Below are positions 2,561-32,024 of a DNA stretch of 64,000 nucleotides, piece after piece. Below the pieces are notes generated by a model. That model did not search any database, was not told the origin of the DNA, and worked only from the letters and a program-made list of their open reading frames with translations. The translations under genes and the position numbers were made by a program. Numbering within the stretch: position 1 is the first letter of the stretch; each line of letters begins with the position of its first letter. Origin of the DNA: Escherichia phage V18; sequence record NC_041937.1. One strand, given 5' to 3'.

Positions 2561-2587
2561 AATAGAAAATCCCCGCCGAAGCGGGGG
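2561..2587 (-). terminator. rho-independent terminator (hairpin CCCCGCCGAAGCGGGGG then U-run on minus strand)
   Basis: GC-rich hairpin preceded on plus strand by an A-run, directly downstream of minus-strand gene 2599..2979. Confidence 0.5.
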
Positions 2588-2598
2588 TGTCTTAGAAA

Positions 2599-2979
2599 TT
2601 AATCGTAGTGTGCCAAAATCTCTCCATCGTTGCAAGTTCCCTCTACAAAGTTATGAAGATTCATGCACTCATCTTGATAGAAGAATTTACCGCTTTTCAG
2701 CCGTAGGCCAAACAACTCCGCATCTCCACGATGGCAAGCCTCTACAAGTTCATAGATTTCATACGGCAACTCTCCGTCGTCATGGAAGAACCCAGCCTTA
2801 TCGTTGACATAGATGAAGAAATAATCACTGCTGTCGCAAGCGTCTAATATTTCAAACCAGATTTCATCTACATCTTTTTCTCGGATATCGATCACGCAAG
2901 TGGAGCTGCATTCGTACTCCTTCTCTGGCTCCTCGGTCAATACCACCCGGTAGTTTCCCCGCTTACCTACTTTAGCCAT
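2599..2979 (-). CDS. hypothetical acidic protein
   Basis: 126-aa ORF with plausible RBS spacing and terminator downstream. Confidence 0.4.
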   Translation of the reverse strand: MAKVGKRGNYRVVLTEEPEKEYECSSTCVIDIREKDVDEIWFEILDACDSSDYFFIYVNDKAGFFHDDGELPYEIYELVEACHRGDAELFGLRLKSGKFFYQDECMNLHNFVEGTCNDGEILAHYD

Positions 2980-2988
2980 ACAACCCCC

Positions 2989-4173
2989 TTAAGCTTTAGC
3001 TAAAATGGCGCTAAACTCTTCACCAAACTCTTTTACAATCTTCATCAGGTTTGGGTACGCTTTGATCAGTTGAGCAACGATCTTGTCACGCCCTTTACCG
3101 ATAAGCAAGGCATTTCCTAAGGCATTAGGTTTCATCATCGCCATAAAGACTGAGAATACAAAATCTCGGTTCTCGTCCTTGAAATTTTCCCAAAGGAAAT
3201 CGAGGAAGTTTGCCACACAGCTAACAAGATCTTCGTCAGAGATACTTGCATTTTCCATCATATTGCGAATAGCGATACACCCTTCAGATCCAAGAATCCA
3301 CAAAATGTCTGGCTGCTTAGGACCTACGTATTCTTTGCAACCCCCTGCCATAATCCGACCGATTTCCGGTAAGTTGCGTTTCTTGGTGTGGTAGGTCCAG
3401 ATCTCTACCGCTGCAGTGTGACCAATAGCCCCTTGCAGAAGAACACGGGCCATAGCGTCAGAAATAATACCGCTGTCAAAATCGTGCAAGATGTCAGATG
3501 CAGCAACCCAAGATCGCGGTGTGGCAAAAGATGGACAATTAATCTCAGCCATAGCCTCATAATTATCGATAGCTGATGGAACTCTTTTCAGATACCCAAT
3601 TACAGAGGAGTGCACCCCATTAAGGAATGCGTAGTCCTCAATAAACACCTCTGCATTGCTTGTAACTTCTACAATGATAAAGCGGTTAGCCAGAGGAGCT
3701 TCGAGCGCCGAGAGAACCGCACCATCTGTAGAACGGTTACCCGCAGCCACAAAAACAGAGCCTTTAGGGAATGCATAGGTGCCGCACTTGTGGTCGAGCA
3801 TAATCTGCATTGCAACCTTTTGCAGATAGTTATCTGCATGAGTAAGCTCATCCAGAAAGATAATCCCGCTCCAGTCCGGATCTGCAGGCCAAAATTCTGG
3901 AATTGCAAACACTGTACGTGTAGTTCCATCCGCTTCTACAGGGATAGGTAGCCCAGATAAGTCGGCAGGATCTTTATCCGACAGTCGCACGTCAACCAGG
4001 TTGTCATCTCGCTCACCGAACATATTATCGGCGATCTGCTTCATTACCTGGCTCTTCCCCACACCCATTGGTCCTAAAATCAGGACAGATCGGTTATGAC
4101 GCTGGGCAAACTGAATGATAGCTGGCAACTCACGGACAGTGATTTGACCACTTTCAAATACGTTTCTTGACAT
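2989..4173 (-). CDS. MoxR-like AAA+ ATPase (CobS/AAA_5-like)
   Basis: 394-aa ORF; Walker A LILGPMGVGKSQ, Walker B IIFLDELTHA, overall MoxR-like layout. Confidence 0.7.
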   Translation of the reverse strand: MSRNVFESGQITVRELPAIIQFAQRHNRSVLILGPMGVGKSQVMKQIADNMFGERDDNLVDVRLSDKDPADLSGLPIPVEADGTTRTVFAIPEFWPADPDWSGIIFLDELTHADNYLQKVAMQIMLDHKCGTYAFPKGSVFVAAGNRSTDGAVLSALEAPLANRFIIVEVTSNAEVFIEDYAFLNGVHSSVIGYLKRVPSAIDNYEAMAEINCPSFATPRSWVAASDILHDFDSGIISDAMARVLLQGAIGHTAAVEIWTYHTKKRNLPEIGRIMAGGCKEYVGPKQPDILWILGSEGCIAIRNMMENASISDEDLVSCVANFLDFLWENFKDENRDFVFSVFMAMMKPNALGNALLIGKGRDKIVAQLIKAYPNLMKIVKEFGEEFSAILAKA

Positions 4174-4355
4174 TAGTAAAAGTCCTCTACTTGTGTGTAA
4201 GTGTTTTCAAAGTTTTCCAAAACAGATGTCACATCGGATCTGTCAATATCGTACACAACTTCCCAGTTGTATGCAACCCTTTCTGCTGTCGCCTCTTCAG
4301 GACTTAGCCGCCTGCTGGGATGAAAGAATGCAATATCTGTGGGTAACTTTGTCAA
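4173..4355 (-). CDS. small hypothetical protein
   Basis: 60-aa ORF, start overlaps stop of upstream gene; codon usage similar to neighbours. Confidence 0.3.
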   Translation of the reverse strand: MTKLPTDIAFFHPSRRLSPEEATAERVAYNWEVVYDIDRSDVTSVLENFENTYTQVEDFY

Positions 4356-4440
4356 AATTTAACTCTTTTTCTGCACAAAGTTCGTGTTTCTGGTATAACA
4401 TGTTTATTACTCTTCTAAGCGGCATCCCTGCCCCCACCTG

Positions 4441-4821
4441 CTAGAATGCAGTTCGAATCCAGATAAGGTTCTTATCTGCCCAATCATAGAGGCAAGTCAT
4501 TGCGCTATTGAATTGCTCACACGGAGGATAATCTTCTTCCATCTGGCGCATAGCAGAGCCTTGCGGGTAAATATCCCGTGCTGCAAGCCACGCATCGTAG
4601 TCATCCACGGTATCGAAGTAGTATACAACATCCTCCAACTCAGGATCGAACTTTGAATTATCAGGATCCAGTTGTTCAGGGAACTTGGAGCGTAACTTGC
4701 CAGCCACAATGCTTGCCAACTCGCTAACATGCTTATTGTCCCACTCTACTAGTTTCCCGTCTTCAGCGATGCGTCCTAACCACTGATCATGAAGGTCAAC
4801 TGTTGTCTTCCACCGGGCCAT
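4441..4821 (-). CDS. hypothetical protein
   Basis: 126-aa ORF in co-directional gene string. Confidence 0.45.
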   Translation of the reverse strand: MARWKTTVDLHDQWLGRIAEDGKLVEWDNKHVSELASIVAGKLRSKFPEQLDPDNSKFDPELEDVVYYFDTVDDYDAWLAARDIYPQGSAMRQMEEDYPPCEQFNSAMTCLYDWADKNLIWIRTAF

Positions 4822-4823
4822 TA

Positions 4824-5081
4824 TCAGTCCACCTCTTCTTCTCGTTGCAGTTCAAGATACCCGTAGGTCTGGATATCTTCAAGGGTGTGGAAATCCCCAT
4901 CTGCCGCTAAGGCACGAACAACTTGGCACAAAACTTTATGAGGAACTTCATCCAGACCCAGATTCAGTGCAGGGAACACCTTATCTAAGTCAACAAAATA
5001 AACGAACTGTAGCTCACCAGCTTCAAAAGGTGTATCTTCAATAAACATCTTCTCGGCATTAGTCAAGATCTGCACTTTCAT
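4824..5081 (-). CDS. hypothetical protein
   Basis: 85-aa ORF tightly packed with neighbours. Confidence 0.4.
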   Translation of the reverse strand: MKVQILTNAEKMFIEDTPFEAGELQFVYFVDLDKVFPALNLGLDEVPHKVLCQVVRALAADGDFHTLEDIQTYGYLELQREEEVD

Positions 5082-5458
5082 TATTCTGCCTCCTCTTCTT
5101 TTTCTTCGGCGTTAGTTTCAGTGCTACCCCACTCTGGAGTTTCCACCTCGATAGTAAACTCACGCACTACACGGTAATTGCCCATGAGGCGCTCCACTTC
5201 GTCAAGGTTTATGGAGAGGCCATTGGCAACCAGGTCTGCAGCACCCTCTTCTACCAGGTAGTCCAGATTGGCTTCCAAAGCTTCAGGCTCAAACCCTGTC
5301 AATGCAATCAGATAACCTTTCCCTTCATCAGGGAGGACAATACAGCCCAACTGATTTTCTTTAAAAAGGCAGTGACCATCATTATTGATTGGGTGTTCAT
5401 TGCAGTAAATAGCTGCACGATAAGTAACTTTAGACATCGGTAAGGCCTCCTTAGGCAA
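5081..5458 (-). CDS. hypothetical acidic protein
   Basis: 125-aa ORF; ATGA-type overlap with next gene. Confidence 0.45.
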   Translation of the reverse strand: MPKEALPMSKVTYRAAIYCNEHPINNDGHCLFKENQLGCIVLPDEGKGYLIALTGFEPEALEANLDYLVEEGAADLVANGLSINLDEVERLMGNYRVVREFTIEVETPEWGSTETNAEEKEEEAE

Positions 5459-5729
5459 TTGTCATTTTACACTCTTGAAATTTTAACACAAGACGGTGAT
5501 TGTGTCTAGTGTCTAAAAAGATTTTTTCAACCATCAGGCACACGGTATAACCGTCCATCTTGTTAACAACAAAATCTCCAGGGTGAGGGAGGATGTCTCC
5601 CGGGTTGGGGAAACATAGTCCGCTCAAGAAGGCATCGTCGGTGGTAGACTTAATGGATTTCCACACGCTATCTGCCTGAACATTCTCACCCACATAGTAT
5701 ACGCTACCACATGTCTTCATCATAGTCAA
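5451..5729 (-). CDS. hypothetical protein
   Basis: 92-aa ORF (track start is TTG; an ATG two codons in is an alternative start). Confidence 0.4.
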   Translation of the reverse strand: MTMMKTCGSVYYVGENVQADSVWKSIKSTTDDAFLSGLCFPNPGDILPHPGDFVVNKMDGYTVCLMVEKIFLDTRHNHRLVLKFQECKMTIA

Positions 5730-5922
5730 ATCTCCGCGTAAATTAAACTGGAATCAGTATACTTCTTTAATGGGTAAATATCCTGTCCATAGATGCAGTC
5801 ATTAAACACCTCATCTACCCAAAGGCTACACTTATATCCCATCATTTCTAAAACACCCATCTCTTCTTCGGTAAACTTATCACCGCTCTTGCAAGATGTC
5901 AATACCTCATTCTGTACTCTTG

Positions 5923-6609
5923 CTACCTCGAAGCGGTATTGGCGATCAAATACTCCCCTAAAGGGTGTGCGGCATTAAAGATGCACAGTGGGCGGTTGAC
6001 GTAATAGTCTCCAGGTGTATAAAAATTATTGAGGTCTTTCACTAGAACATTCTTATCAGTCACTTCATTTATAACATCATGCATATCGCACATCTTTATA
6101 TGTTTGAGGATTCCATCCCCCATCACAAAATAAAAACTTGCTGAGGCACTTTCGGCATAGATCTTACTAGATCCGTTGTAGTTGTATTTTACTCGGATGC
6201 TAACGGGGGTTTTTCCTGTCGCGTTAGCCATCATCCAAAGAAATGGCAGCTCATACTTCTCCTCTGAGGAAACAAAAGGTGAAGTAGCCAGAGATCGAAA
6301 ACCTCCAGAGAAGTTGAAAGTTACAGAACCGCTCCGGCGGTATGATACCGCGTATTCTACTTTTATATCGACATACCCGTTGGAATAGGTGTGTCCTTCA
6401 TTATCTAAATATGTCCACTTATCAGACCCAGATACCAATCTACGTTCAATCACCTTCATCACTATAGGAATTAGTGGGTTGGTACAAACCGCTTTTGAAG
6501 TAGCTTTAGCATCTAGAGCCTCGTAAATTGCAGAAAGGATATCTCCAGCTGAGAGATTGGTTGTTATATCATGTTGCCACCTGGTGCTAAAACTGTTAAG
6601 ATTTGCCAT
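5923..6609 (-). CDS. hypothetical protein
   Basis: 228-aa ORF, first gene leftward of the divergent promoter region. Confidence 0.5.
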   Translation of the reverse strand: MANLNSFSTRWQHDITTNLSAGDILSAIYEALDAKATSKAVCTNPLIPIVMKVIERRLVSGSDKWTYLDNEGHTYSNGYVDIKVEYAVSYRRSGSVTFNFSGGFRSLATSPFVSSEEKYELPFLWMMANATGKTPVSIRVKYNYNGSSKIYAESASASFYFVMGDGILKHIKMCDMHDVINEVTDKNVLVKDLNNFYTPGDYYVNRPLCIFNAAHPLGEYLIANTASR

Positions 6610-6649
6610 GAGTAAGTGCTCCTATGTTAGTTTTCTTTCGAATGGGTGC

Positions 6650-6720
6650 ACTATATCTGGAATTTAGAGTAAAGTCAACACGTTTTTGATGTTGACATCT
6701 GTTGAGACAATTGATAAGAT
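6650..6720. promoter_or_regulatory. divergent back-to-back sigma70-like promoters sharing a palindromic -35 core
   Basis: Palindrome GTCAACA-n9-TGTTGAC (6674..6696). Plus strand: TTGACA 6692..6697, 17-bp spacer, TAAGAT 6715..6720. Minus strand: TTGACT (rc of 6674..6679), 17-bp spacer, TATAGT (rc of 6650..6655). Confidence 0.4.
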
Positions 6721-6751
6721 TTCTTCACTTACAGAGCACGAGAGACAACTC

Positions 6752-6844
6752 ATGAATCTTGAAAAATATTATACACCAGAAGAGTTAGAGCGCCTGCTCA
6801 AAAATATAGACGCAAACAGAATAATGCACGGAAACGAGATATAG
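6752..6844 (+). CDS. small ORF (30 aa) in leader of plus-strand block
   Basis: ATG..TAG ORF MNLEKYYTPEELERLLKNIDANRIMHGNEI downstream of predicted promoter; weak RBS; below ORF-track size cut-off. Confidence 0.25.
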   Translation: MNLEKYYTPEELERLLKNIDANRIMHGNEI

Positions 6845-6905
6845 AGTTCGACCTGTCGTGGGAAGAATACCTCCTATTTGGTAAAAAACTTTTAGGAGAA
6901 GGGGT

Positions 6906-7727
6906 ATGCGACTATACCTTATACCTTTCGACATGCACACAGATGAAAACGGGCTGGGAAATCCTTTCTACCCATCTCTGGAGCGGATAGATGATGAAGG
7001 TCCTTACGCAATTGATAATTGTTGTGTGGTAGGGTTGAGGTGCAACGCTCTGAAGGACTGTCTGGTAGATAAAAAGACCGCAATCCTGATTAAAGACAAA
7101 ACTGATCGAAAAATTGTCCAGCAGATGATGCTACATCTGAGCGAAGAGCGTATGGAGAAGTTGAAAGGTGATTATACTTTTGAAGATTTCATCTTGCAAT
7201 ACGGGACAGAAGAAGATAAACTAGCACTTTTTGACGAAGAGGAAGAAGATATGTCACCAATGCAGGACTTTAAAAATTTCATGGCTGATCGTGCAGCCAA
7301 CAAACACATTTCAGACATCGTAAACGAAACTGTGACAGAAGAAATTGAAGAACAGAACTCTGAAGAGGAAAAAGAGCCTCAGAAGGTCGAAGAGGAGATT
7401 GCAGAAGAGGTTCCTGCACTGCCTGATGATGTTGAGGTTGCTAAGGCTTACACTTTCTATTGTCAAACGTTCTACGATGCAGGTATGAAAGTTGATCTGT
7501 CGTTCAGCCAATTTAAGAGTACGTATATTCGCAAATGCTGTGCTTTAACTGGTGAACGTCTAGGAGCGGGACTTAAACCCCTGTTGGTGACCGACTGGAA
7601 TAAAGGTTTCACTAAAGGAAACTTTATGGTAGTATCTCCAATTATGGAGAAAGCTATGACAGATCTTATGAAAACCACCCGCATGACAATGACCGAGTTG
7701 GCAGGTATTTTCAAACACGTTAAATAA
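6906..7727 (+). CDS. hypothetical protein with central poly-acidic tract
   Basis: 273-aa ORF; strong RBS AGGAGAAGGGG upstream of ATG. Confidence 0.45.
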   Translation: MRLYLIPFDMHTDENGLGNPFYPSLERIDDEGPYAIDNCCVVGLRCNALKDCLVDKKTAILIKDKTDRKIVQQMMLHLSEERMEKLKGDYTFEDFILQYGTEEDKLALFDEEEEDMSPMQDFKNFMADRAANKHISDIVNETVTEEIEEQNSEEEKEPQKVEEEIAEEVPALPDDVEVAKAYTFYCQTFYDAGMKVDLSFSQFKSTYIRKCCALTGERLGAGLKPLLVTDWNKGFTKGNFMVVSPIMEKAMTDLMKTTRMTMTELAGIFKHVK

Positions 7728-7760
7728 TGACAGGGGCCATTGGCCCCTTCTGGAGTTTTA

Positions 7761-9221
7761 ATGGATAGCAGAAGTTCAGAAATCATTGCCTCACAGAAAG
7801 ATGATGCCCTGAGAATGTTGCAGGCTGCACGTATGTATCTCCTTGAAAAGCTGCCGTTTTATGGCACGCTACTGTCAGGGTTGCAGTTCGTAGAAAACCA
7901 CACATGGTGCTCTACCATGGCAACCGACCATAAACGCATCTATTACAGTCCTGAGTTCATTATGGGGTTGGCTGATGAACGCAAGGCTATTCTTAAGACC
8001 TCTCTAACTGGCGAGCAGTTTGAAATGGCTGAAGTTTTCTATTCACCCAAATCTGTGAAAGAGGTGGCCTTCCTTCTGTCACATGAGGTGGGGCATATTA
8101 TCTGTGATCACCTGGTCCGTGGTAAAAGCTTTGAGCCGGAACTGTTCAATATTGCTTGTGATCACGTTATCAACACAGGTCTTGTGGTTGACTTTAGCAA
8201 GCCTCCTTGTGTTTTCTTCCCGAAGGGGAAAAGCACTACGTTTGTGAAAGGTAAGCCTTTTGGCTTCTTAGCCAGCTGCTACTGCGACATGAAGTTTCAT
8301 GGATGGATTGCTGAGAACGTCTATGCAGTTCTTGATAAGCAAAGAGATCAGAATAACGGTAAAAGTAAGAGCGGTAAAGGTGAGAACTCTCAAGAGGATA
8401 AGCGACAAACCGATGATCACATGAGTGGGAACGGTGGCACCAGTGATGATCTTGGAAAGGCTATGGGATATAATCAGCCACAACCTGTAATCAGCCAATC
8501 TGATAAAGATCAGGCCATGCAGGACTCTGGTGACATGCTGGAGGCAGCAATGCAAGCTTCCGGAGGTCGTTGCCCTGAGGCGGTGCGTGAGTTTGTCAAG
8601 AACAGAGGTAAGCCTGTAATCAACTATATAGACATCATTAAGCAACGCATGTTGTCTAAACGAAAGGCTGAACTGACCTACAGAAAACCTGGTCGCCGAT
8701 CTGGGTCTTTGACCAGCACAATGCGAAAAGTTGGGGCTATAAACAAGAACCAGCACGTTATTGTTCCCGGTCGTAATCCGGAAAACACTATAGATATTGT
8801 GGTGGCTTTAGACGTTTCTGGCTCGATCTCTCAAAGAACTTTAAAGAAAATGTTCAATGAAATCACCGGATTGTGCAATCTGTATAAAGAGTTTAAGGTT
8901 ACAATGTTCTGTTGGTCAACTGAGGTTGGAGAGGTTAAAGTATACACTCGCGGTAACATAGATGAGATGATCAACTATGAGGTCCACTCAACATGGGGCA
9001 CAACAGCTGCTTGCGTGTTCGAGTATCTGGATGCCAACATACCGAATGCAAAAGATGTCATCGTCCTGACCGACCTATACTTTGAGCATAACTTTGAACA
9101 AAAGGCTGTTGACAACAAGTGGAAAAAGTACGATACTTTATGGGTTCTCACCGAGGGGTATAATAAAAATTATATCCCGAGCTTTGGGAAAACTGTAGAA
9201 TTAATCGAGTACGCCAAGTAA
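7761..9221 (+). CDS. vWA-domain protein with N-terminal putative zinc-metallopeptidase domain (DUF2201-like)
   Basis: HEVGHIICDH (HExxH) and MIDAS-like VVALDVSGSIS; start moved to ATG 7761 with GGAG RBS (track start 7740 lies inside a hairpin). Confidence 0.65.
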   Translation: MDSRSSEIIASQKDDALRMLQAARMYLLEKLPFYGTLLSGLQFVENHTWCSTMATDHKRIYYSPEFIMGLADERKAILKTSLTGEQFEMAEVFYSPKSVKEVAFLLSHEVGHIICDHLVRGKSFEPELFNIACDHVINTGLVVDFSKPPCVFFPKGKSTTFVKGKPFGFLASCYCDMKFHGWIAENVYAVLDKQRDQNNGKSKSGKGENSQEDKRQTDDHMSGNGGTSDDLGKAMGYNQPQPVISQSDKDQAMQDSGDMLEAAMQASGGRCPEAVREFVKNRGKPVINYIDIIKQRMLSKRKAELTYRKPGRRSGSLTSTMRKVGAINKNQHVIVPGRNPENTIDIVVALDVSGSISQRTLKKMFNEITGLCNLYKEFKVTMFCWSTEVGEVKVYTRGNIDEMINYEVHSTWGTTAACVFEYLDANIPNAKDVIVLTDLYFEHNFEQKAVDNKWKKYDTLWVLTEGYNKNYIPSFGKTVELIEYAK

Positions 9222-9227
9222 GAGAGG

Positions 9228-9494
9228 ATGTTATTTATGGCAACAGAGGTAGTAATCAAAGCTGAACGCCCAGTTAAAAAAGCTATCAACACGTTCCCTG
9301 TGGGAACCATTGTGAGCATGATCACAGAGTCAGGCCGTGTATCTACGCTGCTGATTGTGAAATCTGCATGTTCTTCTTGTGTGTGGGCTTACGATCTGGA
9401 CGAGAAAGAACTAAAAGATTTTGTTGGGGAGCTGAAAGCAACCGAGCTCGATGCTCGTATCGAAGTATTTGGTGAAACTATGGAGGAAGAGTAA
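9228..9494 (+). CDS. small hypothetical protein (member of tandem trio)
   Basis: 88-aa ORF. Confidence 0.4.
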   Translation: MLFMATEVVIKAERPVKKAINTFPVGTIVSMITESGRVSTLLIVKSACSSCVWAYDLDEKELKDFVGELKATELDARIEVFGETMEEE

Positions 9495-9757
9495 TGACCA
9501 CGAAAATCACTATTGCAGAACCGAAAGCTAACACTCAACCCATCGAAAAATTTAAATGCGGTGAGGTGGTAACATTTACACCAGATAATGAAGATGCTAA
9601 GATTTTCGCCATGGTCACAGCTGAGTGGATGTGCGACAACACCACACAGGTTCTGCGTTTTGACACCTACCTTACAGATGAAATCAGGAACGATAAGATC
9701 GTGACTGGTGTAGATACTGAAATTATTTTCTACAAGAGCTTTTTAGAGGGTTTCTAA
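9494..9757 (+). CDS. small hypothetical protein (member of tandem trio)
   Basis: 87-aa ORF. Confidence 0.4.
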   Translation: MTTKITIAEPKANTQPIEKFKCGEVVTFTPDNEDAKIFAMVTAEWMCDNTTQVLRFDTYLTDEIRNDKIVTGVDTEIIFYKSFLEGF

Positions 9758-9758
9758 T

Positions 9759-9995
9759 ATGGCGAAAATTCGTAAATTATCCAACAAGCAGGTTGTGAAA
9801 GATTTTGAACCAGGAGAGATTCTGTATGTTCGTGATGCAGATGACGAAGGAGAAGATCTTGTCATGCTGCTAGGGCACGCTGCTGAGGACGGATGCATCC
9901 AGGCTGTTTTTCTTGAAACAGCTATGGTGCACTGGATAGAGCTGGACATGAAAGCACGAAAACCTAAAGCAGAAATCCTGATTTACGAAGATTAA
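9759..9995 (+). CDS. small hypothetical protein (member of tandem trio)
   Basis: 78-aa ORF. Confidence 0.4.
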   Translation: MAKIRKLSNKQVVKDFEPGEILYVRDADDEGEDLVMLLGHAAEDGCIQAVFLETAMVHWIELDMKARKPKAEILIYED

Positions 9996-10011
9996 CAAAA
10001 AGGAGAGAGCC

Positions 10012-10461
10012 GTGTTGAGCAAACGTGAATGCGACAGCATTAGCCTGAATTCTTATAAGAAACAATGGTTTGGGGTAGAAGTTTGCCGACTGCGGCTAGG
10101 CTCCTACCTGAACTTCGTTTATTACGAGAGCGACAGTCGTATCGTTTCTTATGAAGTGTTCTACACTAAGAACACATTCGAACTGCGCCGTAAAGTAGAG
10201 GGAGGGAGAACTACCACCCAGAATAATTGGGAAACTATTCTGCCTCCAGATGTTATAGGAAGTCCCCTGAATGTATCTGAAGATGAAAATCTTATGGTTC
10301 ATGCTATGATGGGACTTGACAGCTTAGAGCTGGCGATCTATGATATGTCCATCGAAGCAGTTAAGCTGGACTACATCGAAAACACTTTAGAGGAAGGTAT
10401 CAAGAAGTTTCTCAGTGAGAAATTAAAAGATCACTTTCATAAGGAGCTATACCTGTTATGA
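10012..10461 (+). CDS. hypothetical protein
   Basis: 149-aa ORF. Confidence 0.45.
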   Translation: MLSKRECDSISLNSYKKQWFGVEVCRLRLGSYLNFVYYESDSRIVSYEVFYTKNTFELRRKVEGGRTTTQNNWETILPPDVIGSPLNVSEDENLMVHAMMGLDSLELAIYDMSIEAVKLDYIENTLEEGIKKFLSEKLKDHFHKELYLL

Positions 10462-10703
10462 AGACCCGTAAAGAACGTAACAAAATTTTACCTGGGGCTC
10501 TCGAACACCTGATGAAGTGCAGATCTATTTGGCACTCTGCCAAGGAAGGGCAGAAGGTGGTTGTGGTTAGTGACAATACCAACCCGTTTGGAGATTATAC
10601 CACCATGATGGCCCCATATGTCCGTGATGGCGTTGTGGAGGTGGTCCCTTACAACGGTCTGCATGAACGTCACTTTGAAAGCACTTTGCTAGTGGAGCTA
10701 TAG
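10458..10703 (+). CDS. hypothetical protein
   Basis: 81-aa ORF, ATGA overlap with upstream gene. Confidence 0.4.
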   Translation: MKTRKERNKILPGALEHLMKCRSIWHSAKEGQKVVVVSDNTNPFGDYTTMMAPYVRDGVVEVVPYNGLHERHFESTLLVEL

Positions 10704-10705
10704 TC

Positions 10706-11272
10706 ATGGCGGTCAATGTGGCTTACAACACAGGAAAGCTTGACAGAGACATTGGGTGTCTTGTCCTTTCAGATACAGAAGAGTATTGGGGCTATGGGTT
10801 GCTGTCAGACCCACACCCGAGCAACCTTGTATCAACAGTGCTATACCGCTACGACCCTGTGCCAACGGTACACGACAAAGACATTCACGACCTTCGGATT
10901 AAGTGTTTGGAAGATCTGCTGAACAATGGTTGCAACGATCTGCGGGTAGCCAAAGAGAAGCTTACAAACATTCACAAAGAGGAAGTGATGAGCACCCTCA
11001 GTAAGAGATCAGTGCACAAAAAGATGATGCTGAACTTTGCAATGGGTATCTACATGGATGGGTATAAGGGAGGTGATCCGATTCTCAAGCTTCGCTGCCC
11101 GACATTGTGGGAAAGAGTGGTTGACAGCAAGGACGGTACTGCCCTGCTCGAACTCCACACTGCAGGTTGGATTTGGCGGTATGTAGACGGATACCCTCTG
11201 TGGGCATGTGGACCTGGGGAATTTGTTGACAGGCCTAGTGCGGTGGTGGACTTACTATTGCAGTTTGAATAA
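10706..11272 (+). CDS. hypothetical protein
   Basis: 188-aa ORF. Confidence 0.5.
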   Translation: MAVNVAYNTGKLDRDIGCLVLSDTEEYWGYGLLSDPHPSNLVSTVLYRYDPVPTVHDKDIHDLRIKCLEDLLNNGCNDLRVAKEKLTNIHKEEVMSTLSKRSVHKKMMLNFAMGIYMDGYKGGDPILKLRCPTLWERVVDSKDGTALLELHTAGWIWRYVDGYPLWACGPGEFVDRPSAVVDLLLQFE

Positions 11273-11329
11273 AAAGGTGAGTTATAAGGTATTCATACAC
11301 CTACCAACAATACAACAGGAGAGACTGAG

Positions 11330-11605
11330 ATGACGAAAGAAGAGGCCGACGTATTAGATTTTGCACTAGAGGCTACGCAGGAGGCTTTGGTGTTAGCTTG
11401 GAAAATGAACCAGCGTGCTGCAGAATGCAACCGCCGCATTAATGAGATTCTGGGCATGTCCATGTATGATTTCACTATGCATGCTGGAGAGATTCCTGAA
11501 TTAACTGCAGAGATGAATGATCTTGACAATAAAATCAATATCATTCTGAAGACAGCAGAAACAACTCACCAAACCACCCGTAAATTTATCAACGAGAAGG
11601 TGTGA
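11330..11605 (+). CDS. hypothetical protein
   Basis: 91-aa ORF. Confidence 0.45.
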   Translation: MTKEEADVLDFALEATQEALVLAWKMNQRAAECNRRINEILGMSMYDFTMHAGEIPELTAEMNDLDNKINIILKTAETTHQTTRKFINEKV

Positions 11606-11794
11606 ATATGGACTACAGCTACTGCGGGGAAGAAGTCCCTTTTAATTACAGCAATCTTACCACGAGCAATCCATATGAGACTCGCCACGCACGCACATCA
11701 TTGCCATTGACTTTGATGGAACGTTTAATGCGAGCCCTTTCATCTTCTCCCGCCTGACAGGGATCTAAAGAAGGAGGGGTGGACAGTCTACCTT

Positions 11795-12070
11795 GTGACT
11801 TTCCGATTCATTACTCAAGACAATGTAGACATTGAGTATTGGCGCAAGGAGCTCGATGTTGGTGTGTTTTATACTGGTGGTGTTCAGAAGGCAGCCTATC
11901 TGGCGCAGTTTGATATCTACCCAGATATCTGGATTGATGATTCTCCGGCATGTATTCCGGCTAAGAATCAGTTAGAGTTTGCAATGAAGGAGATCGAGTA
12001 TAAGTCTGAGGCTAAGCGGAACGGATGGCCCTTTATTATTGAAGATTACCCAGATCCTGAACCGGAGTAA
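11795..12070 (+). CDS. hypothetical protein (GTG start)
   Basis: 91-aa ORF; GGAGGGG about 15 nt upstream. Confidence 0.4.
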   Translation: MTFRFITQDNVDIEYWRKELDVGVFYTGGVQKAAYLAQFDIYPDIWIDDSPACIPAKNQLEFAMKEIEYKSEAKRNGWPFIIEDYPDPEPE

Positions 12071-12299
12071 GAGCCATGAGGCGAAGATATCATTACCTGA
12101 TGTGGAAGTTATATCAAAATGCTGCCAAAGCCTATCATACCATGTTTGGCAATGACGATCACTACATCATGTTACATCTCACCGCTATTGAGCATCACAA
12201 TGAGTGGATTCATGCAATCGTGGCAGGTGATAAAGACTTTAAGTAAAAATATGCCTTAAAACGCAAAAGGACATAGCTTTCTAGACGGAGACTGATTAA

Positions 12300-23244: not shown

Positions 23245-23256
23245 TTTATCTCCTGA

Positions 23257-25892: not shown

Positions 25893-26025
25893 GGTTAAGA
25901 ATGTGACTAAATTAACCTTCTCAGCCAGAAAATCTCCAGGCAGGTAGTCAAGACCTCCCTGAACAAAATCTGGCAGAGTGTGGATGTGGTTAACATCGAC
26001 TTAATCTCTGCCATATCTCGCCGCC

Positions 26026-27516
26026 TTAAATAGTTTGTTGGAAAGTTATATTACTTTCGTCAAGGTCAAACACCTCGGTCATGTTCGCAACAATATCGTT
26101 TGTAGTGTAAGCTTCATCAGAAGCTCCTACTGGTTTAACTTGAATTACCAGTCTATTAAATCTGCCTATTGACACAGCAGCAGATGCAGCACCGACCAAT
26201 TGGATATTATACAACGTATCTGCAACATCCAGTCCGTTAACAACCTGTAAAAGAGCCTCTATAATAGCATCTTTTTCGGTTGTGGAAAGCGCAGCACCGG
26301 AGTAGGTAATTCTTACATCTAGGCGGTAGGTATTTGCCTTGGAGTAATAAATTCTTTCAGTTTGACCGTCAGATGTAGTGACATCGTAGAAAATATTACC
26401 ATAAGTCCTGTTCGTACAGGCTATAGTTTGGTAAAGTGCTTGGCAAATGTCCTCCGTTGCACCACCAAACACAACCACTTGGAACTTGTAAGGAGGTATA
26501 CCTTTAGCATCAGTTTTATCAGTGTTGTTGGAGAACACTCTCACTTTCTCAACACCTTTCACCTCGCTTACAGCGCTAAGGATTGCAGGACGGGTAGCCT
26601 TAGATGTTAACTGTTTTGTGCTGGAAGCTCTTAAGCGATACTCTGAGTCTTTCTCAACATCTCTGCCCTCATTGAATCTTTCTCGGTTGGTAAGCTTGAT
26701 AAATCCACTGGGTGTAGGAGACATTGTTGTTACGGTTTCTGCCTCTCTTGACAGCTCACCAGCCTCGTTAGCGATAACATCCAGGGTGATAGTTCTTTCC
26801 CCTACAATCGGGGATACTCTGAAATCTACTCTACTATTAAGTCCAACTTGATCAAGATTCGAATTGTACCCTATCCACAACGTTCCTGTCAACATATCGA
26901 TCTGAATCAAATCGTCGTTCAACAGGGTTGTATTATCGACAATAAACTGCTTAATCTCTCCGTAAAAGCTTGGCAGATCAGAAGAGTCCAGAGACTTATC
27001 TGTTAAAACCAGACTTTTTGTTTTGATACTTCCATCTGTCTGGTTGGTAATTTGAAAGTTGTATTTACCAATCCTTAGGTCTGGAGCATTTATTCTGTGA
27101 GCAATAAGATTCCCTGCTACTTGCACATCGTTGCTAAGCACAAAGTTGCCACTGTCCAGCGTATAAGTTTTGGAATCATAAATCATATTGTACGGCACAG
27201 TTGTGTTGATTGTCAACTGACAGGTGCCTGATGATTTAGAACGGCCTCTTCGGTAAATACCCTGTCTTCCAAGAAGCTCATCCAGGTAAATACCTTCTGC
27301 CCCATACAGCGTCTGTGATGCGTATACAGATGCTGCCATAAGAATAAGTTGATACTCTCGCTCGTTGAAGATAGTGGTCAGCTTATCTGCAACGGAGTTA
27401 CTCTGTACGTTGAAGTTTTCGCCAAAAGCACGGATCAGGCTTTGCTTAGTTTCAACGATTAGGTCATTTAGGGTTGGTATAACGAAACCAGCCTCTGTCA
27501 ATCCATACTTAGCCAC
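26026..27516 (-). CDS. baseplate J-like (gp6-like) protein, tentative
   Basis: 496-aa ORF; N-terminal pattern resembling Baseplate_J family; assignment from memory only. Confidence 0.45.
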   Translation of the reverse strand: MAKYGLTEAGFVIPTLNDLIVETKQSLIRAFGENFNVQSNSVADKLTTIFNEREYQLILMAASVYASQTLYGAEGIYLDELLGRQGIYRRGRSKSSGTCQLTINTTVPYNMIYDSKTYTLDSGNFVLSNDVQVAGNLIAHRINAPDLRIGKYNFQITNQTDGSIKTKSLVLTDKSLDSSDLPSFYGEIKQFIVDNTTLLNDDLIQIDMLTGTLWIGYNSNLDQVGLNSRVDFRVSPIVGERTITLDVIANEAGELSREAETVTTMSPTPSGFIKLTNRERFNEGRDVEKDSEYRLRASSTKQLTSKATRPAILSAVSEVKGVEKVRVFSNNTDKTDAKGIPPYKFQVVVFGGATEDICQALYQTIACTNRTYGNIFYDVTTSDGQTERIYYSKANTYRLDVRITYSGAALSTTEKDAIIEALLQVVNGLDVADTLYNIQLVGAASAAVSIGRFNRLVIQVKPVGASDEAYTTNDIVANMTEVFDLDESNITFQQTI

Positions 27517-27586
27517 GTCACTCCTCCGGTATGAAAATCTCTACAAGGTATTTTACCAAATTTTGTAACAATAGTCAATCTGAGCA

Positions 27587-27612
27587 TAAAAATAAACCCC
27601 GCCGAAGCGGGG
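27587..27612 (-). terminator. rho-independent terminator (CCCCGCCGAAGCGGGG motif)
   Basis: Hairpin plus U-run on minus strand downstream of 27622. Confidence 0.5.
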
Positions 27613-27621
27613 CTTTAAAGG

Positions 27622-30365
27622 TTAGTCGTGAGACTCGTTCCAAGGTCCCTGGAAGCTAGAGTTTGAACGACTTACTATCACAGTAGGACAGGATATTGTA
27701 ACACCTGTTACAGCTGAGGTGGACCAGCGTGTGTAAATTTCAACAATAATGTCTATGGTTTGTTCACCCAGCCCTGTTATCCCGACTGCACACATACCAT
27801 CGTTATCGTTACCATACTTCTTGCCGTTAAGCTTAAAGAAGAATGTTACGTTCTTGCCTTGGCCTTGAACGTTATCCACGTATCTCCATCTCCAACGGCA
27901 AACCTGCTGCCGAGAGTTGTATACTGGAGGACAGTCACCGTAGGTCTTGTGTGCAACTATTGCACCTTCGAACTGGTTAGCACGGATAACGGAAGCTTCT
28001 ACACGTCCACGGAATGTACCTCCTGTTGCATCTATGGTTCCTCTAAAGCTACCATTGTTGGCATAAACATCTCCACGGAAGGTACCACTGGTGGCGTTAA
28101 CTGCCCCTGTGAAGTTACCTGCACTAGCGTTGATGTTACCTTTCACCCACACATCCATAAACTGGGCGTGCCCGTTCTTGTTAATATACCAACCGTATTT
28201 ATGGTACCCGTTGCCATCGTAGTTGTTTGACGAAATCTCTTGTGCGATCTTGGCAGAGGAGATCGTGCCATTCTCTATAAAAGCGTCTTTCAAGAACGCT
28301 TGGTTGTTCTTGATTGCGAAAGCAAGGGTTGCTGTTCCATTGCCGGGGTTGTATACCGCAAAATTGTTTGCACTAACCATGAAGTAGGATTGAACTTGGC
28401 CCCCAGACCCTTCCATCCCCAACTGGATACCTGCAACATATTTAAGCAGCGTGCAGCGCATTCTACAAACTGAGAACTACCAAAAGCGTTTGTGGTTCGA
28501 ATATACCAATAATAAACCTTATCGTTCTGCAGACCTTCAGATGTCCAAGTTGAACCAACACCCATACGGGTGGCGTTTGAAGTAACGGTTGCATCGCTGG
28601 TGTCGGGCAACCTTGTCATACCAGATGTCCAAAAGTCATACTGGGTGCTTACACTTGCTAAATCCCTGCTGTGTGGAATCAAGGTGATAGCAAAGTATCC
28701 CTGCTTAACCTCTACAGAAACAGGAGCTTCAGGTGCCTGAATGTTAAACTCGCAGTACGCTTCTGGAGATACACCACCTTTATAAGATGTTGCAACCACG
28801 GTTGCTGTGTATGATCCTTTGGTCAAGCCTTCTACTCGGACAAACTGCTCAACTGTCTGTGCTGTCCAAACAATCTCTCCGTTCTTTCTTACCTGCACAA
28901 TATTTTGAGCGTAAGTTCCAACGTTGTCCCAAGCCAAAACACCGTGAGTTACTTCCCCGGCTTGGAGAACGGAATATCTGAAGTTTTGCGGTTGAGCTAC
29001 ACCAGATGGAGATATCGGAATATCTACATTGCCAGAATCCGGAAGTTGCCCTGTGGCATCATTCCACTCTTTAGCATCTTGACGAAGTTTTACCTTGACA
29101 CCACCCTTTTTGGTAAACTCCCATTCAAGAACCCTCATTTCTTGGCCCACTATACCAATACTTGGAAGGTTCATTGTAACGTAACGACCAGGTTTAAATT
29201 TAAAACCCCGCATATTGCAGGTGACTTCAATAATCCTGCCAGCTCTAGCGCGTCTTAAGAAGATTGCAGAAACACGCTGAGCTTGATAAGGGCTGGTAAC
29301 AAAGCGATAGTCTATATCGATTATCTTTCTTTCTCCATCCTTCTCTATCCACTCTGGGACAAACACTGATGGAAAATCTGTTTCAGAATACCCTTTAGTC
29401 GGACTGGTGAATCTGCCAGTTATTGTGTTGGATCTTTTGTCAAACGAGGCTTCCGGATAGATCTTGACCTCACCACAGACACAGTCCTCACTCAGTGTCA
29501 TTGTTGCTGGACCATAATATGCACCTACCAGCAGTCCATACTTACCAGCTACATAACTGAGATCTGCACCACAAGCTTTCAGCATTTCTGCCATAATACT
29601 TGCTGGAGCCTCATCCATGTCGAACTCACCATTGATGGTGTAACGGCGCTCACTAGTTCCGTCCGCGTTTCTTACCGCCTCATCGCATATGTTGGCAGCC
29701 TCCTTGAAGGACTCCCAGTTGATGGTTTCGTCAGGACATTTAAGGTACGTTCTTAAATAATCTAGAATCACCAAGGCCGCGTTATTGGTATACACCTCTT
29801 TACTGATACGAGGATCATAGCATTTTTTACCAACCTTGACGAGTGTAACGTTTGGCAACCCAAAAGGGAACTTGTTAGGGTCAAACCTGAAGCTGGCACG
29901 TAGCCAACTGATCCCTCTACCTATCATGTCTGGTGACCACGATGGGCAGTGTGTACCCATGAAAGGATCAGATGTTTTTCTGTCGTTATGTAGCTCCCAC
30001 GATACCAAATCTCCATACGAGGAAATAGGATTACCGTCGATAAGTATGTCCTCTATACCTTCCAGAGGGTGATTGGCAAGAACAATAGCACAATGGAGGG
30101 TTCTGTCGCTATCCTGCTCCAAAAACGCAAGCAATCCAGATGTGCGTGTCTTTCCATACACTACAGAGCAAGGTGCAGCAGAAGATCTGAGAAGCTTTTG
30201 TCTATCTTGCTGACTTCTGTAAGATTTGTTGCCCTCAAAAATCTTATCCAAAGTTCTGGTGGTCACAGTGTTCAGGCTGTCAGCCAGAGCTGCCTTGGAT
30301 GCGTTCCAGTCATAACTTGAAGATCTTGCAGAAGCAACGATGTTATCAATCATTGCAATTGGCAT
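27622..30365 (-). CDS. lambda J-like tail tip/host specificity protein, interrupted by a frameshift near 28440..28465
   Basis: 28290..30365 carries APEAPVSVEVKQGYFAITLIPH and YYWYIRTTNAFGSSQFVE, closely matching my recollection of lambda J; 27622..28461 in another frame continues with KYVAGIQLGME... and fibre repeats. Confidence 0.6.
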
Positions 30366-30802
30366 TAATACCTCCAGACATCAACAACGATAGAATCTTT
30401 CATGTCGAACATAAAGACCCCTTTATCACCTTTCGCCCAAATCTGGTTGTTCCAGAACACACCAGCGGTGAGCCCGTTCAGACCTTCGAAAATAACAATA
30501 TCGCCACGCTGAACCTGTTTAGGAGTACCCAGTCGAGTCATAAAGAGATCAAAAATAGTAGGCAGGTGTGTAGTTTTGAAACGAAGCATGCACCATCTTT
30601 TGCTTTCCAACTCTGTTTTATACGTTCCTTCGAAGTTGGAAAGAAAATCTGTTCCGTATTGGGCATCAACACACTTAGCTGCAAAGGTGCAACAATCGTG
30701 GAATCCCCATTCAAAAGGTATGGTGGCCTCTTCGTCAAACACTTTCCACAATCTTTCTTGCCAATCCACTAAACGAGGGTGTGTGCTCATTAAACCTCCC
30801 AA
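30365..30802 (-). CDS. NlpC/P60-like tail-associated peptidase, tentative
   Basis: 145-aa ORF; FHDCCTF motif around candidate catalytic Cys; immediately upstream of J-like gene. Confidence 0.45.
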   Translation of the reverse strand: MGGLMSTHPRLVDWQERLWKVFDEEATIPFEWGFHDCCTFAAKCVDAQYGTDFLSNFEGTYKTELESKRWCMLRFKTTHLPTIFDLFMTRLGTPKQVQRGDIVIFEGLNGLTAGVFWNNQIWAKGDKGVFMFDMKDSIVVDVWRY

Positions 30803-31356
30803 ATGATCGGGCGGCTCGCCACCTGATCCACATATTTAAAAAATCTGTCATTATCGTTTCTTGAGCTGTGGCTTTCCTCCGTGTACCGATAAGGAAAACC
30901 TCTTAACCAGCTGTTGAAGATGGAAGAGATGGATATGGACAAAGCACTATTCTCTCCTGTCTGAATAGCCATATCTGTTATAAGGCCGTCAAACAAGCCA
31001 TTAGTTGTGACAGGCAGACCATTCTCCATAGCGGTAATGTACAACGTGGCACGACAACCAGAATACTCCGTCTTCAGCAGATCACCCACATACTTAGGAT
31101 CAAACCCGTTTAATGTTGCTACCACAGACCCGAAGTTGGTGGCATCTTTCTCAGACACAGCAGTTAATGTTGCTGATCCACCTATCCCTATAAAATGTTG
31201 CCCCTCAATTACCACAACACCAGTGCCTGAGCACACCCTGACAGTTCCTGTCGGTAGCTCCAGCTTTGCAGCAATTAAGATCTCAACACCATCAAGCTCC
31301 AGCTTTTCAAGAAATAAATTATCTAATGGCGCTCTGATCATCTTAGAAATCCTCAA
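30790..31356 (-). CDS. minor tail protein
   Basis: 188-aa ORF in distal tail module. Confidence 0.4.
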   Translation of the reverse strand: MRISKMIRAPLDNLFLEKLELDGVEILIAAKLELPTGTVRVCSGTGVVVIEGQHFIGIGGSATLTAVSEKDATNFGSVVATLNGFDPKYVGDLLKTEYSGCRATLYITAMENGLPVTTNGLFDGLITDMAIQTGENSALSISISSIFNSWLRGFPYRYTEESHSSRNDNDRFFKYVDQVASRPIIWEV

Positions 31357-31368
31357 AGAAGTTGATAA

Positions 31369-31932
31369 CTATATTATCACCTTTTTGCATAGCATCGACT
31401 TTTTGCTTAATTTTATAAATATCTCTGATATGAAACCTACCTTCGGAGATTGAGTTATTATCTTCATGGTGTCCCCTGCGGCAATAGGTTTTCTAAGTCT
31501 TGGCGATATGCTTATAACAGCAGACCCAACACCATCACTACGCACTGGAGCTGTTACCACTTTCAATTCATCATTGACAGATATTTTATCTCCAGCTCTG
31601 GCTATGTCTCTGTTTGGCTCCCATCCGACCGTCTTCAAAAAATCGTCGTTACCAGTAGGCCCAAGGGCGATTGGCTCATTAGCTGTTACTGAGTGACCGT
31701 AAGTTTTAATAAGAAAGATGTTCCCATCTTTATACACCTGATCAACAAAGCTCTTAAGCTCTAGCAACTGTGACTCGCTGATATTGGAAACTGTCAAAGT
31801 GCCTTTCCAGTTAGGTGTGGCATAGGTTACTTTTTGCGTTTTACCTGTAAACGGACTTTTAAACGTAACAATATCTGCCAGCAGCTCCAATCTAATATCT
31901 GGAAGATATCTAGGCCTTTCCCATAAAAACAT
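31369..31932 (-). CDS. minor tail protein
   Basis: 187-aa ORF in distal tail module. Confidence 0.4.
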   Translation of the reverse strand: MFLWERPRYLPDIRLELLADIVTFKSPFTGKTQKVTYATPNWKGTLTVSNISESQLLELKSFVDQVYKDGNIFLIKTYGHSVTANEPIALGPTGNDDFLKTVGWEPNRDIARAGDKISVNDELKVVTAPVRSDGVGSAVISISPRLRKPIAAGDTMKIITQSPKVGFISEIFIKLSKKSMLCKKVII

Positions 31933-31994
31933 TGTGCCTCCAGGTTAAACAATCATGATAGTTATTTTACCAGATTTTAAGTTAATACGCAATA

Positions 31995-32024
31995 CAAACA
32001 AAAAGCCCCCGCCGAAGCGAGGGC
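31995..32024 (-). terminator. rho-independent terminator (variant of CCCCGCCGAAGCGGGG motif)
   Basis: Hairpin GCCCCCGCCGAAGCGAGGGC plus U-run on minus strand, just downstream of 32032. Confidence 0.45.

Follow-up and report, generated by a model that had tools for sequence, protein, structure and literature searches.

One predicted UUCG-capped terminator hairpin at three minus-strand sites of an rV5-like Escherichia phage

Why one short hairpin should stand, nearly letter for letter, at three well-separated places on the minus strand of an rV5-like Escherichia phage (Vequintavirus), and whether its repetition says anything beyond what a terminator says, is the question raised by this locus. 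A motif search of the whole window (the 64,000 nt stretch analysed) finds CCCCGCCGAAGCGGGG on the plus strand at 2571-2586 (S1) and 27597-27612 (S2), precisely where an earlier note had placed a 16-base repeat. The one-mismatch variant that it gave as 32005..32024 (S3) is also there, although the 16-base core, CCCCGCCGAAGCGAGG on the plus strand, occupies 32007-32022, and the longer interval is an extended 8-bp stem (GCCCTCGC-TTCG-GCGGGGGC on the minus strand). Further matches with up to two mismatches were found neither in the window nor in 100 dinucleotide-preserving shuffles, and the genome-wide motif search that the same note had called for, made on rV5, locates the 10-mer core CGCCGAAGCG only at the three orthologous sites.

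Read on the minus strand each copy is CCCCGC-UUCG-GCGGGG, S3 with one mismatch, and runs into a U-rich tract; the mismatch gives a U.G wobble and so pairing at S3 is kept. All three copies have the four-base UUCG loop on a C-G closing pair (...GC-UUCG-GC...), and a terminator scan assigns them stems of 6-9 bp with 6-7 G-C pairs, the predicted fold energies of the S1, S2 and S3 hairpin regions being -13.6, -16.5 and -16.9 kcal/mol. The plus-strand A-runs noticed earlier are real (aaatagaaaat, cataaaaataaa and caaacaaaaag) and amount to minus-strand U-tracts, clear at S2 and S3, weaker and interrupted at S1. All three hairpins are intergenic, co-oriented with the minus-strand genes, and lie 6-12 nt beyond the stops of the ORFs at 2599-2979, 27622-28461 and 32032-32745, so that the description of them as minus-strand terminator hairpins just past gene stops holds on each point: G+C stem, UUCG loop, U-tract and gene co-orientation.

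Individually the sites differ in what follows them. S1 lies between the gp003 homologue (2599..2979, minus strand, function unknown), the last gene ahead of it, and a gene for an endolysin (a SleB-like cell-wall hydrolase; 2050..2550, minus strand), the first gene past it. Its interrupted U-tract, AUUUUCUAUUU at 2560..2570, directly abuts the endolysin Shine-Dalgarno GGAG (2556-2559; GTG start 2548-2550), and thus there is no space for a promoter after S1; the hairpin stands 10 nt ahead of the endolysin ribosome-binding site with no intervening promoter. The full S2 hairpin, AAGCCCCGC-UUCG-GCGGGGUUU at 27594..27615 on the minus strand, lies 6 nt beyond the stop codon that ends the C-terminal ORF of the J-like central tail fibre (gp037 homologue, 27622..28461, minus strand, the last ORF ahead of it). 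Its U-tract reads UUUAUUUUU as a whole, the remainder AUUUUUAUG at 27585..27593, and a predicted promoter follows at 27549..27578 on the minus strand (TTGACT-N17-TAAAAT with TGGTAAAATA; sigma-70-like plus a putative late motif), ahead of the baseplate wedge subunit gene (gp036 homologue, 26026..27516, minus strand). The extended S3 hairpin, GCCCUCGC-UUCG-GCGGGGGC at 32005..32024, is 7 nt past the stop of the tail-fibre protein C-terminal ORF (gp041 homologue, 32032..32745, minus strand, the last ORF ahead of it), and its U-tract, UUUUUGUUUGUA at 31993..32004 (also written GCUUUUUGUUUG or (GC)UUUUUGUUUG), is followed by a putative late promoter at 31963..31992, TTGCGT-N14-TGGTAAAATA, and then by the distal tail protein gene (gp040 homologue, 31369..31932), all on the minus strand. 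Thus S2 and S3 both have TGGTAAAATA, a putative late-promoter motif, past them. The window holds four UUCG-loop terminators and rV5 six; the fourth here (S4, minus strand, 45306..45329, equal to rV5 t052) serves for comparison and has a different stem, AAGCCUCACC-UUCG-GGUGGGGCUU, with a promoter past it at 45255-45227 (TTGACA-N17-TGGTAAAAT). Other terminators of the same late operon have unrelated hairpins.

Two of the three sites have already been predicted in rV5. Table S4 of the rV5 genome paper lists t003 and t041 among its predicted rho-independent terminators, and P036 and P040 among its predicted promoters (PMC3606486, Kropinski et al. 2013); S1 and S3 are orthologous to t003 and t041, with identical hairpins, and the promoters past S2 and S3 correspond to P036 and P040. 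S2, in the gp037/gp036 gap, is absent from the terminator table of that paper and from the RefSeq annotation, and neither the main text nor Table S4 mentions a hairpin common to three rV5 terminators. To rV5-type annotations the analysis contributes one unannotated predicted terminator, in the gap between the J-like tail-fibre and baseplate-wedge genes.

Very probably S1-S3 are Rho-independent terminators of minus-strand operons, their shared 16-mer carrying no special information. Anatomy and position, as given above, bear this out, as do conservation of structure and generic occurrence, and from these we infer actual termination, leakiness at S1 and protection of mRNA. As the RNA is made, its G+C stem of 6-9 bp with the cUUCGg cap would fold just before the U-rich tract, at which the host RNA polymerase would let the transcript go, and the hairpin remaining at the 3' end should shield the mRNA against 3' exonucleases. 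S3 and S2 would end two consecutive late (tail) transcription units, flanking a J-like tail-tip module (gp040-gp037), with transcription presumably restarted by the TGGTAAAATA promoter 34-38 nt past each, and since each is followed by such a restart promoter the two would act as terminator-promoter insulators. S1 is most likely a leaky terminator (an attenuator), which would tune transcription into the endolysin gene and rIIA.

The same hairpins could be chiefly stabilisers of mRNA 3' ends, or processing barriers against exonucleases after endonucleolytic cleavage, and not polymerase stop sites. Hairpins of the cUUCGg kind have exceptional stability, and Tuerk et al. in 1988 are said to have found them common in T4 intercistronic regions, where they are known as stabilisers; at S1, moreover, the U-tract is poor and endolysin expression requires read-through. 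However, S2 and S3 have good U-tracts right after the stem and promoters of their own, which is the layout expected of termination and re-initiation, and a T-tail also follows most copies of the 16-mer elsewhere, and so a mainly stabilising role appears unlikely.

How ordinary the hairpin is can be seen outside this phage. The exact 16-mer occurs in at least 120 contigs of a viral collection (IMG/VR) and in at least 120 of a bacterial one. Among the matches listed, 98 of 125 viral copies, on 120 unrelated IMG/VR contigs, are followed by at least five T in eight, and 92 of 120 bacterial copies, from many phyla, have a T-tail, around 77% of copies. Because only 16 nt are common and, among these matches, the T-tail is strand-specific in that same proportion, a MITE- or REP-type repeat, or a palindrome acting at the DNA level, was rejected. 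The control 16-mers GCCCGCTTCGGCGGGC and GGGGCCTTCGGGCCCC give at least 120 matches each, and the whole class of G+C stems with UUCG loops, for which SSSSSCTTCGGSSSSSNTTT is a degenerate pattern covering terminators of differing stems, is common; the shared 16-mer would be one of a few equivalent hairpins of this class that recur as terminators across viruses and bacteria. The iGEM artificial forward terminator BBa_B1002, cgcaaaaaaCCCCGCTTCGGCGGGGttttttcgc, is the same hairpin with T6 (10.1101/624551), its hairpin is carried by published primers (PMC8233975), and an independently designed synthetic terminator also has it (10.1101/2021.11.05.467461). With use by many unrelated viruses, bacteria and synthetic biologists, the repeat is real but ordinary.

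Orthologous positions in related phages indicate what is kept. Upstream of the wedge gene, at the S2 position, Henunavirus has CCCGC-UUCG-GCGGG, Seunavirus GGGGC-UUCG-GCCCC, Mydovirus CCACCC-UCCG-GGGUGG, Certrevirus GGGAGCC-UCU-GGCUCCC and Plateaulakevirus GCCUCU-UCAC-AGGGGC. Pairs were counted over Vequintavirus, Henunavirus, Seunavirus and Mydovirus, two genera of the six-genus alignment being left out because differing loop lengths put them out of register; in these four, 20 of 20 cells pair, and four of the five pairs have changed on both sides. At the S1 position, just ahead of the endolysin Shine-Dalgarno, four other genera also have hairpins, of other sequence. Structure and not sequence is thus what is selected, since other genera of the Vequintavirinae keep orthologous terminators with different stems. 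Relatives carry UUCG or UCCG loops at matching positions, and one rV5-like contig has UCCG at S3 and UUAG at S2, so that the tetraloop is a preference and not a requirement. The IMG/VR search for loci related to the window yielded three rV5-like contigs only. The tail genes are split into units bounded by terminator and promoter, a layout conserved upstream of the wedge gene across five genera.

The earlier suggestion that the module may be recognised by a phage factor finds no support in this comparison. It would make the shared sequence the site of a phage-encoded RNA- or DNA-binding factor specific to the three sites, whether antiterminator, processing nuclease, regulator or the like. Stem identity is indeed lineage-specific, and were stems chosen uniformly, fewer near-identical copies than three would be expected in one genome. 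But stems and loops differ at the orthologous sites of sister genera, one rV5-like contig has the divergent loops just described, and S3 itself departs by one wobble; the three sites lie in different operons and contexts, and hundreds of unrelated genomes use the 16-mer as a terminator, with the synthetic part working without any phage factor. The Rfam 15 covariance models, applied to the window at gathering score, return three tRNAs only, and the hairpins match no family. A dedicated factor is for these reasons highly improbable, and identical short GC/UUCG hairpins in a genome do not count as evidence of specific recognition, because the same 16-mer is generic, from phages to Actinomycetota and synthetic parts.

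If the terminator reading accounts for each site, it does not by itself say why one stem is used three times. With 32 possible GC-only 6-bp stems that end in a C-G closing pair as the null, a rough estimate of the probability that three of four UUCG terminators share one stem is 10^-2 to 10^-3, and so the three-copy coincidence is much weaker against a terminator-aware null than against random sequence. A thermodynamic optimum was rejected as the cause, CCCCGC ranking 17th of the 32 with all stems within 1.7 kcal/mol. Given this middle rank, and the diversity of stems that 3.2 Mb of viral contigs show in their non-seed UUCG terminators, neither stability nor a universal preference is sufficient alone. 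Identity was found in none of 2086 non-seed within-locus hairpin pairs of the viral loci, which confines hairpin reuse to the small GC/UUCG class; the rate of identity between loci is inflated by related contigs and gives no usable null. The three stems are likely not fully independent, through copying or through a lineage-specific preference.

Copying is a possible source, held here only tentatively: S1-S3 may be paralogous copies, spread by duplication or short-patch gene conversion and serving as joints for the insertion or exchange of modules, which is compatible with their being terminators. S1 and S2 are unlike in sister genera and identical in Vequintavirus. At the S1 position an (A)GCCCC/GGGGC(U) stem is common to three genera, and the window S1 retains the outer CCCC/GGGG but has GC-UUCG-GC where those genera have the old loop. 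The J-like module gp040-037, between S3 and S2, is missing there in the other genera examined. Aligned without the hairpin, the sequences downstream of S2 and S3 score z 4.4 (1 of 500 shuffles), other terminator-promoter pairs z 1.3-2.8; this likeness may however be one of functional motifs (T-tract, -35, TGGTAAAATA, Shine-Dalgarno), which shuffling does not preserve. A second identical pair in rV5, t213/t232, has a common 22-mer including its G.U wobble, and the IMG/VR loci contain 11 extra copies of the seed hairpin over 3.2 Mb, compared with two foreign-seed copies in about 8 Mb, several of the extra copies having similar downstream promoter or ribosome-binding-site sequence. Set against copying are the brevity of what is shared, 16 nt with unrelated upstream flanks at all three sites, and the lack of identical non-seed pairs within loci. 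Efficient RecA-type recombination requires roughly 23-27 bp, a minimum that 16 bp does not reach, although phage annealases can use less.

It was also proposed that the copies may serve as a recombination hot spot. The window and rV5 show no breakpoint relative to each other at any of the three sites, and no deletion or other rearrangement between copies was found; the flanks of S1 and S2 are colinear in 114 of 114 relatives. S3, however, is exactly at a mosaic junction of the tail-fibre gene: homology stops 2-4 nt upstream of its hairpin in about 35 of 118 relatives, and in FFH2/naswa-type relatives the 3' 540 nt of the gp041-homologue ORF are swapped for another allele. S3 is thus a module boundary for tail-fibre exchange, as any first conserved sequence past a variable gene would be. 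A fuller history, speculative and rather doubtful, would have the terminators homogenised within the genome. Microhomology-templated conversion would have patched the ancestral S1 hairpin, (A)GCCCC-loop-GGGGC(U), of a type that Seuna-, Mydo- and Henunavirus still have, with the GC-UUCG-GC core of S2. S3 and S2 would both go back to a single terminator/late-promoter cassette, duplicated and then separated by the acquisition of a lambda-like J tail-tip module, and short cassettes of this kind would be the landing pads and joints at which Vequintavirinae exchange modules. Overall the result matters little, and its mildly interesting thread is this one, a hairpin possibly spread by copying and marking module joints.

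Against known systems, the preferred reading of S1-S3 as terminators fits the Rho-independent terminators of E. coli and coliphages, with which they have in common the G+C hairpin, the immediate U-tract, the place past stops and the co-orientation with genes. The cUUCGg (UNCG) hairpins of T4 have the same UUCG loop, C-G closing pair and GC stem, with no essential difference. BBa_B1002 is identical to the phage copies over the 16-nt hairpin but sets it in a perfect A6/T6 frame, whereas the phage U-tracts are natural and less perfect. The last comparison is with the PeSLs (promoter-early stem-loops), mobile regulatory cassettes of the T4-type phages RB49 and phi1 (Arbiol et al. 2010, PMC2839356), of which each genome has about 50, concentrated in hyperplastic early regions beside ORFans. 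Their stem-loop is within the promoter or overlaps it, and they are proposed as recombination joints (PMC2839356). In contrast, the whole rV5 genome has three copies, beside tail and lysis genes in late and lysis operons, and the hairpin is 34-38 nt upstream of a -10-like motif; S1 has no promoter, and comparison of the window with rV5 shows no PeSL-type rearrangement. A likeness may be seen in that PeSLs join an intergenic stem-loop terminator to a sigma-70-like promoter while S2, S3 and S4 each have a hairpin and a promoter at similar spacing, that the regions downstream of S2 and S3 are more alike than controls, and that an allele-replacement boundary coincides with S3, though with neither S1 nor S2. 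Were the homogenisation history true, these short cassettes would be the late-gene counterpart of the T4-type PeSLs.

The 16-mer CCCCGCCGAAGCGGGG lies at 2571-2586 (S1) and 27597-27612 (S2) of the window, with a version differing at one position, CCCCGCCGAAGCGAGG, at 32007-32022 (S3), and a window scan allowing up to 2 mismatches gave no further match, as shuffled sequences gave none. The coding strand is the minus strand at all three sites, and the predicted hairpins read CCCCGC-UUCG-GCGGGG then AUUUUCUAUUU at S1, AAGCCCCGC-UUCG-GCGGGGUUU then AUUUUUAUG at S2 and GCCCUCGC-UUCG-GCGGGGGC then UUUUUGUUUG at S3, where the single mismatch gives a U.G wobble. The hairpin regions have predicted folding energies of -13.6, -16.5 and -16.9 kcal/mol respectively, a consensus terminator scan detects all three, no Rfam family matches any of them, and the flanks upstream of the 16-mer are unrelated. 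S1 to S3 are, by prediction, ordinary intrinsic terminators with a generic cUUCGg hairpin; the earlier note had rightly read them as minus-strand terminator hairpins, and the three positions it gave are confirmed.

In rV5 (NC_011041), a Vequintavirus phage, Kropinski et al. 2013 (PMC3606486) predicted 20 rho-independent terminators with ARNold, among them t003 (CCCCGCTTCGGCGGGGATTTTCTATTT), which is S1, t041 (GCCCTCGCTTCGGCGGGGGCTTTTT...), which is S3, and t052, a fourth UUCG terminator with a different stem (window 45329-45306). Two of our three terminators were therefore already published and S2 is missing from the terminator table of that paper; the RefSeq feature table of rV5 lacks all three. 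A search of the complete rV5 genome, which was used for comparison, places the 10-mer core at the three orthologous sites and nowhere else.

S1 separates a gp003 homologue of unknown function, whose stop codon is 12 nt before it, from a SleB-type endolysin gene with a GTG start 20 nt after it, rIIA following. Since the U-tract of S1 continues into the GGAG ribosome-binding site, no promoter fits between S1 and the endolysin. S2 lies between the C-terminal ORF of a J-like central tail fibre and a baseplate-wedge gene, and S3 between the C-terminal ORF of a tail-fibre protein and a distal tail protein gene, at the beginning of the four-gene J-like tail-tip module gp040-gp037. The sequence TGGTAAAATA occurs 38 nt downstream of the S2 hairpin and 34 nt downstream of that of S3, with TTGACT (S2) and TTGCGT (S3) at −35 spacing ahead of it. 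The putative late promoter motif of rV5, TG(G/A)TAAAATA, is at window 27549-27558, 31963-31972, 45226-45235 and 48746-48755, and the rV5 promoters P036 (after S2) and P040 (after S3) belong to the eight-copy putative late motif TggTAaAAtA of PMC3606486.

In sister genera a hairpin stands directly upstream of the baseplate-wedge gene, and reads AAACCCGC-UUCG-GCGGGUUU in Henunavirus, AAGGGGC-UUCG-GCCCCUU in Seunavirus, AACCACCC-UCCG-GGGUGGUU in Mydovirus, AAAGGGAGCC-UCU-GGCUCCCUUU in Certrevirus and AAAAGCCUCU-UCAC-AGGGGCUUUU in Plateaulakevirus. Where the sequences align in register (Vequinta-, Henuna-, Seuna- and Mydovirus), 20 of 20 cells pair, and both sides have changed in four of the five pairs. 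TG(G/A)TAAAATA follows this terminator in five genera (Vequinta-, Seuna-, Mydo-, Henuna- and Certrevirus), its sequence being conserved there and the terminator stems not; the terminator-promoter layout is therefore older than their split. Similarly a hairpin precedes the endolysin ribosome-binding site by 8-12 nt as AGCCCC-UUUCUU-GGGGCU in Seunavirus, AGCCCC-GCAAU-GGGGCU in Mydovirus, AAGCCCC-UAUCGCA-GGGGCUU in Henunavirus and AAGGCUCAG-UGUUAAA-CUGGGCCUU in Certrevirus. One rV5-like IMG/VR contig, its stems intact, carries a UCCG loop at S3 and a UUAG loop at S2. Structure and not sequence is therefore conserved at the S1 and S2 positions, and such variation of stems and loops, across and within genera, argues against a sequence-reading factor, leaving the proposed recognition by a phage factor without support.

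In the terminator after the tape-measure gene (window 42035-42048; sister-genus loci L366, L368 and L369) a GGGGC/GCCCC stem is kept in four genera and the loop drifts, being UCUG in the window, UCCG in rV5 and UUCG in Seuna-, Henuna- and Certrevirus. The annotated 5' end of a cell-wall hydrolase gene of Salmonella phage GEC_vB_MG (L498 769-1341) holds a terminator-like hairpin, AGCCCC-TTTCTT-GGGGCT, and after it a T-tract, the GGAG motif and TTG as a start, the arrangement of the other genera; the true start probably lies about 50 nt downstream of the annotated one.

The 16-mer sequence itself is not special. It occurs exactly in at least 120 unrelated IMG/VR contigs, and among the matches listed (125 copies) flanks are unrelated, 98 copies have at least 5 T in the next 8 nt and only 20 have an A-run ahead. 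One genome per species searched across Proteobacteria, Bacteroidota, Verrucomicrobiota, Actinomycetota, Bacillota, Patescibacteria and cyanobacteria gave at least 120 prokaryotic copies (T-tail in 92 of 120 among the matches listed), and two hairpins of that class run as controls likewise gave at least 120 matches each. The iGEM artificial terminator BBa_B1002 is the same hairpin between A6 and T6 (10.1101/624551), which was also independently designed as a minimal synthetic terminator (10.1101/2021.11.05.467461). The exact S3 variant, wobble included, is found in the post-tape-measure terminator ACCTCGC-TTCG-GCGGGGT of the distantly related coliphage nieznany (Phapecoctavirus; L371 410-427). 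Two G+C-rich IMG/VR viral contigs (L051 10360-11384, L089 2451-3126) carry the 16-mer 2-3 times within longer repeats and with no T-tail, and these copies are probably not terminators.

Because CCCCGC takes only a middle rank in stability among the 32 GC-only stems, and 3.2 Mb of viral loci contain other UUCG terminators whose stems are diverse, one stem in three of the four UUCG terminators of the window is unlikely under independent choice (estimated probability 10^-2 to 10^-3). There are hints that the identical stems arose by intragenomic copying: S1 and S2, identical in the window, are unlike each other in sister genera, S1 has retained the ancestral outer CCCC/GGGG with the old loop replaced by GC-UUCG-GC, and the J-like module flanked by S3 and S2 is absent at that place in other genera examined. 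However, only 16 nt are shared among the three. The resemblance of the S2 and S3 downstream regions, hairpins excluded (z 4.4 vs 1.3-2.8 in other terminator-promoter pairs), is a further hint of copying but could be explained by common functional motifs. Another hint is a second identical pair in rV5, t213/t232 (GCCCTGCCC-GAAA-GGGTGGGGC; rV5 121349-121370 and 132398-132423, outside the window), with differing flanks and a common G.U wobble. In viral loci seeded by one GC/UUCG hairpin, further copies of that hairpin occur at about ten times the background level, some having downstream promoter or RBS sequence in common, which also hints at copying, although 0 of 2086 within-locus pairs of other hairpins are identical.

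Megablast with window 2000-12000 and 26000-34000 gave matches of 91-97% identity in about 120 phage records, almost all of them Vequintavirus (rV5-like Escherichia myophages). Some 16-18 unannotated GenBank records, MG0656xx, carry the name 'Campylobacter phage', with C. jejuni given as host, and share 95-100% identity with the window phage; on that identity their names or hosts look doubtful. The window and rV5 are colinear, every indel being intragenic (J, gp041, gp027 and others). The J-like gene (27622-30365) is two overlapping ORFs, 28290-30365 and 27622-28461, and the window lacks 1039 nt of rV5 gp037 (rV5 29572-30610; junction 28444/28445), not a multiple of 3; either J is truly truncated or frameshifted here or the assembly is in error. 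The giant Ig-like domain gene, one 5.6-kb ORF in rV5 (gp027), is four consecutive ORFs at 13503-18065, with rV5 15810-15961, 16109-16470 and 18185-18883 missing or diverged. About 160 nt at 51231-51395 replace about 1.08 kb of rV5 (54466-55550: head-decoration gene gp061 and part of gp062). The rV5 annotation assembles the terminase large-subunit gene from three joined pieces and places an HNH endonuclease gene inside it; the window region (53874-55429) lacks rV5 58831-59810 and 60122-60456 and is therefore an allele without those insertions. Three tRNA genes (Met, Thr, Arg; 56620-56942) compare with six annotated in rV5 (Pro, Met, Thr, Ser, Tyr, Arg), the tRNA-Ser segment (rV5 62262-62632) being absent.

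S1, S2 and S3 each lie within long colinear blocks against rV5, and in 114 of 114 relatives the alignment spans the whole 80-nt surroundings of S1 and of S2. At S3 the alignment of about 35 of 118 records, of the FFH2 and naswa type, breaks off 2-4 nt beyond the hairpin on its upstream side. There another tail-fibre 3' end and an extra 333-nt ORF adjoin the hairpin, and in FFH2 and naswa homology restarts exactly at UUGCCCUCGCUUCGG (junction at window 32026, L495 2552 and L496 2555). With S3, conserved sequence thus begins again after an exchangeable receptor-binding cassette. S3 is a module boundary, which is no evidence of the 16-mer driving recombination, and the suggested recombination hot spot is not supported. 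The nearest precedent for a role in recombination is the promoter-early stem-loop (PeSL) cassette of the T4-type phages RB49 and phi1 (PMC2839356), which differs from S1 to S3 in copy number, location and architecture.
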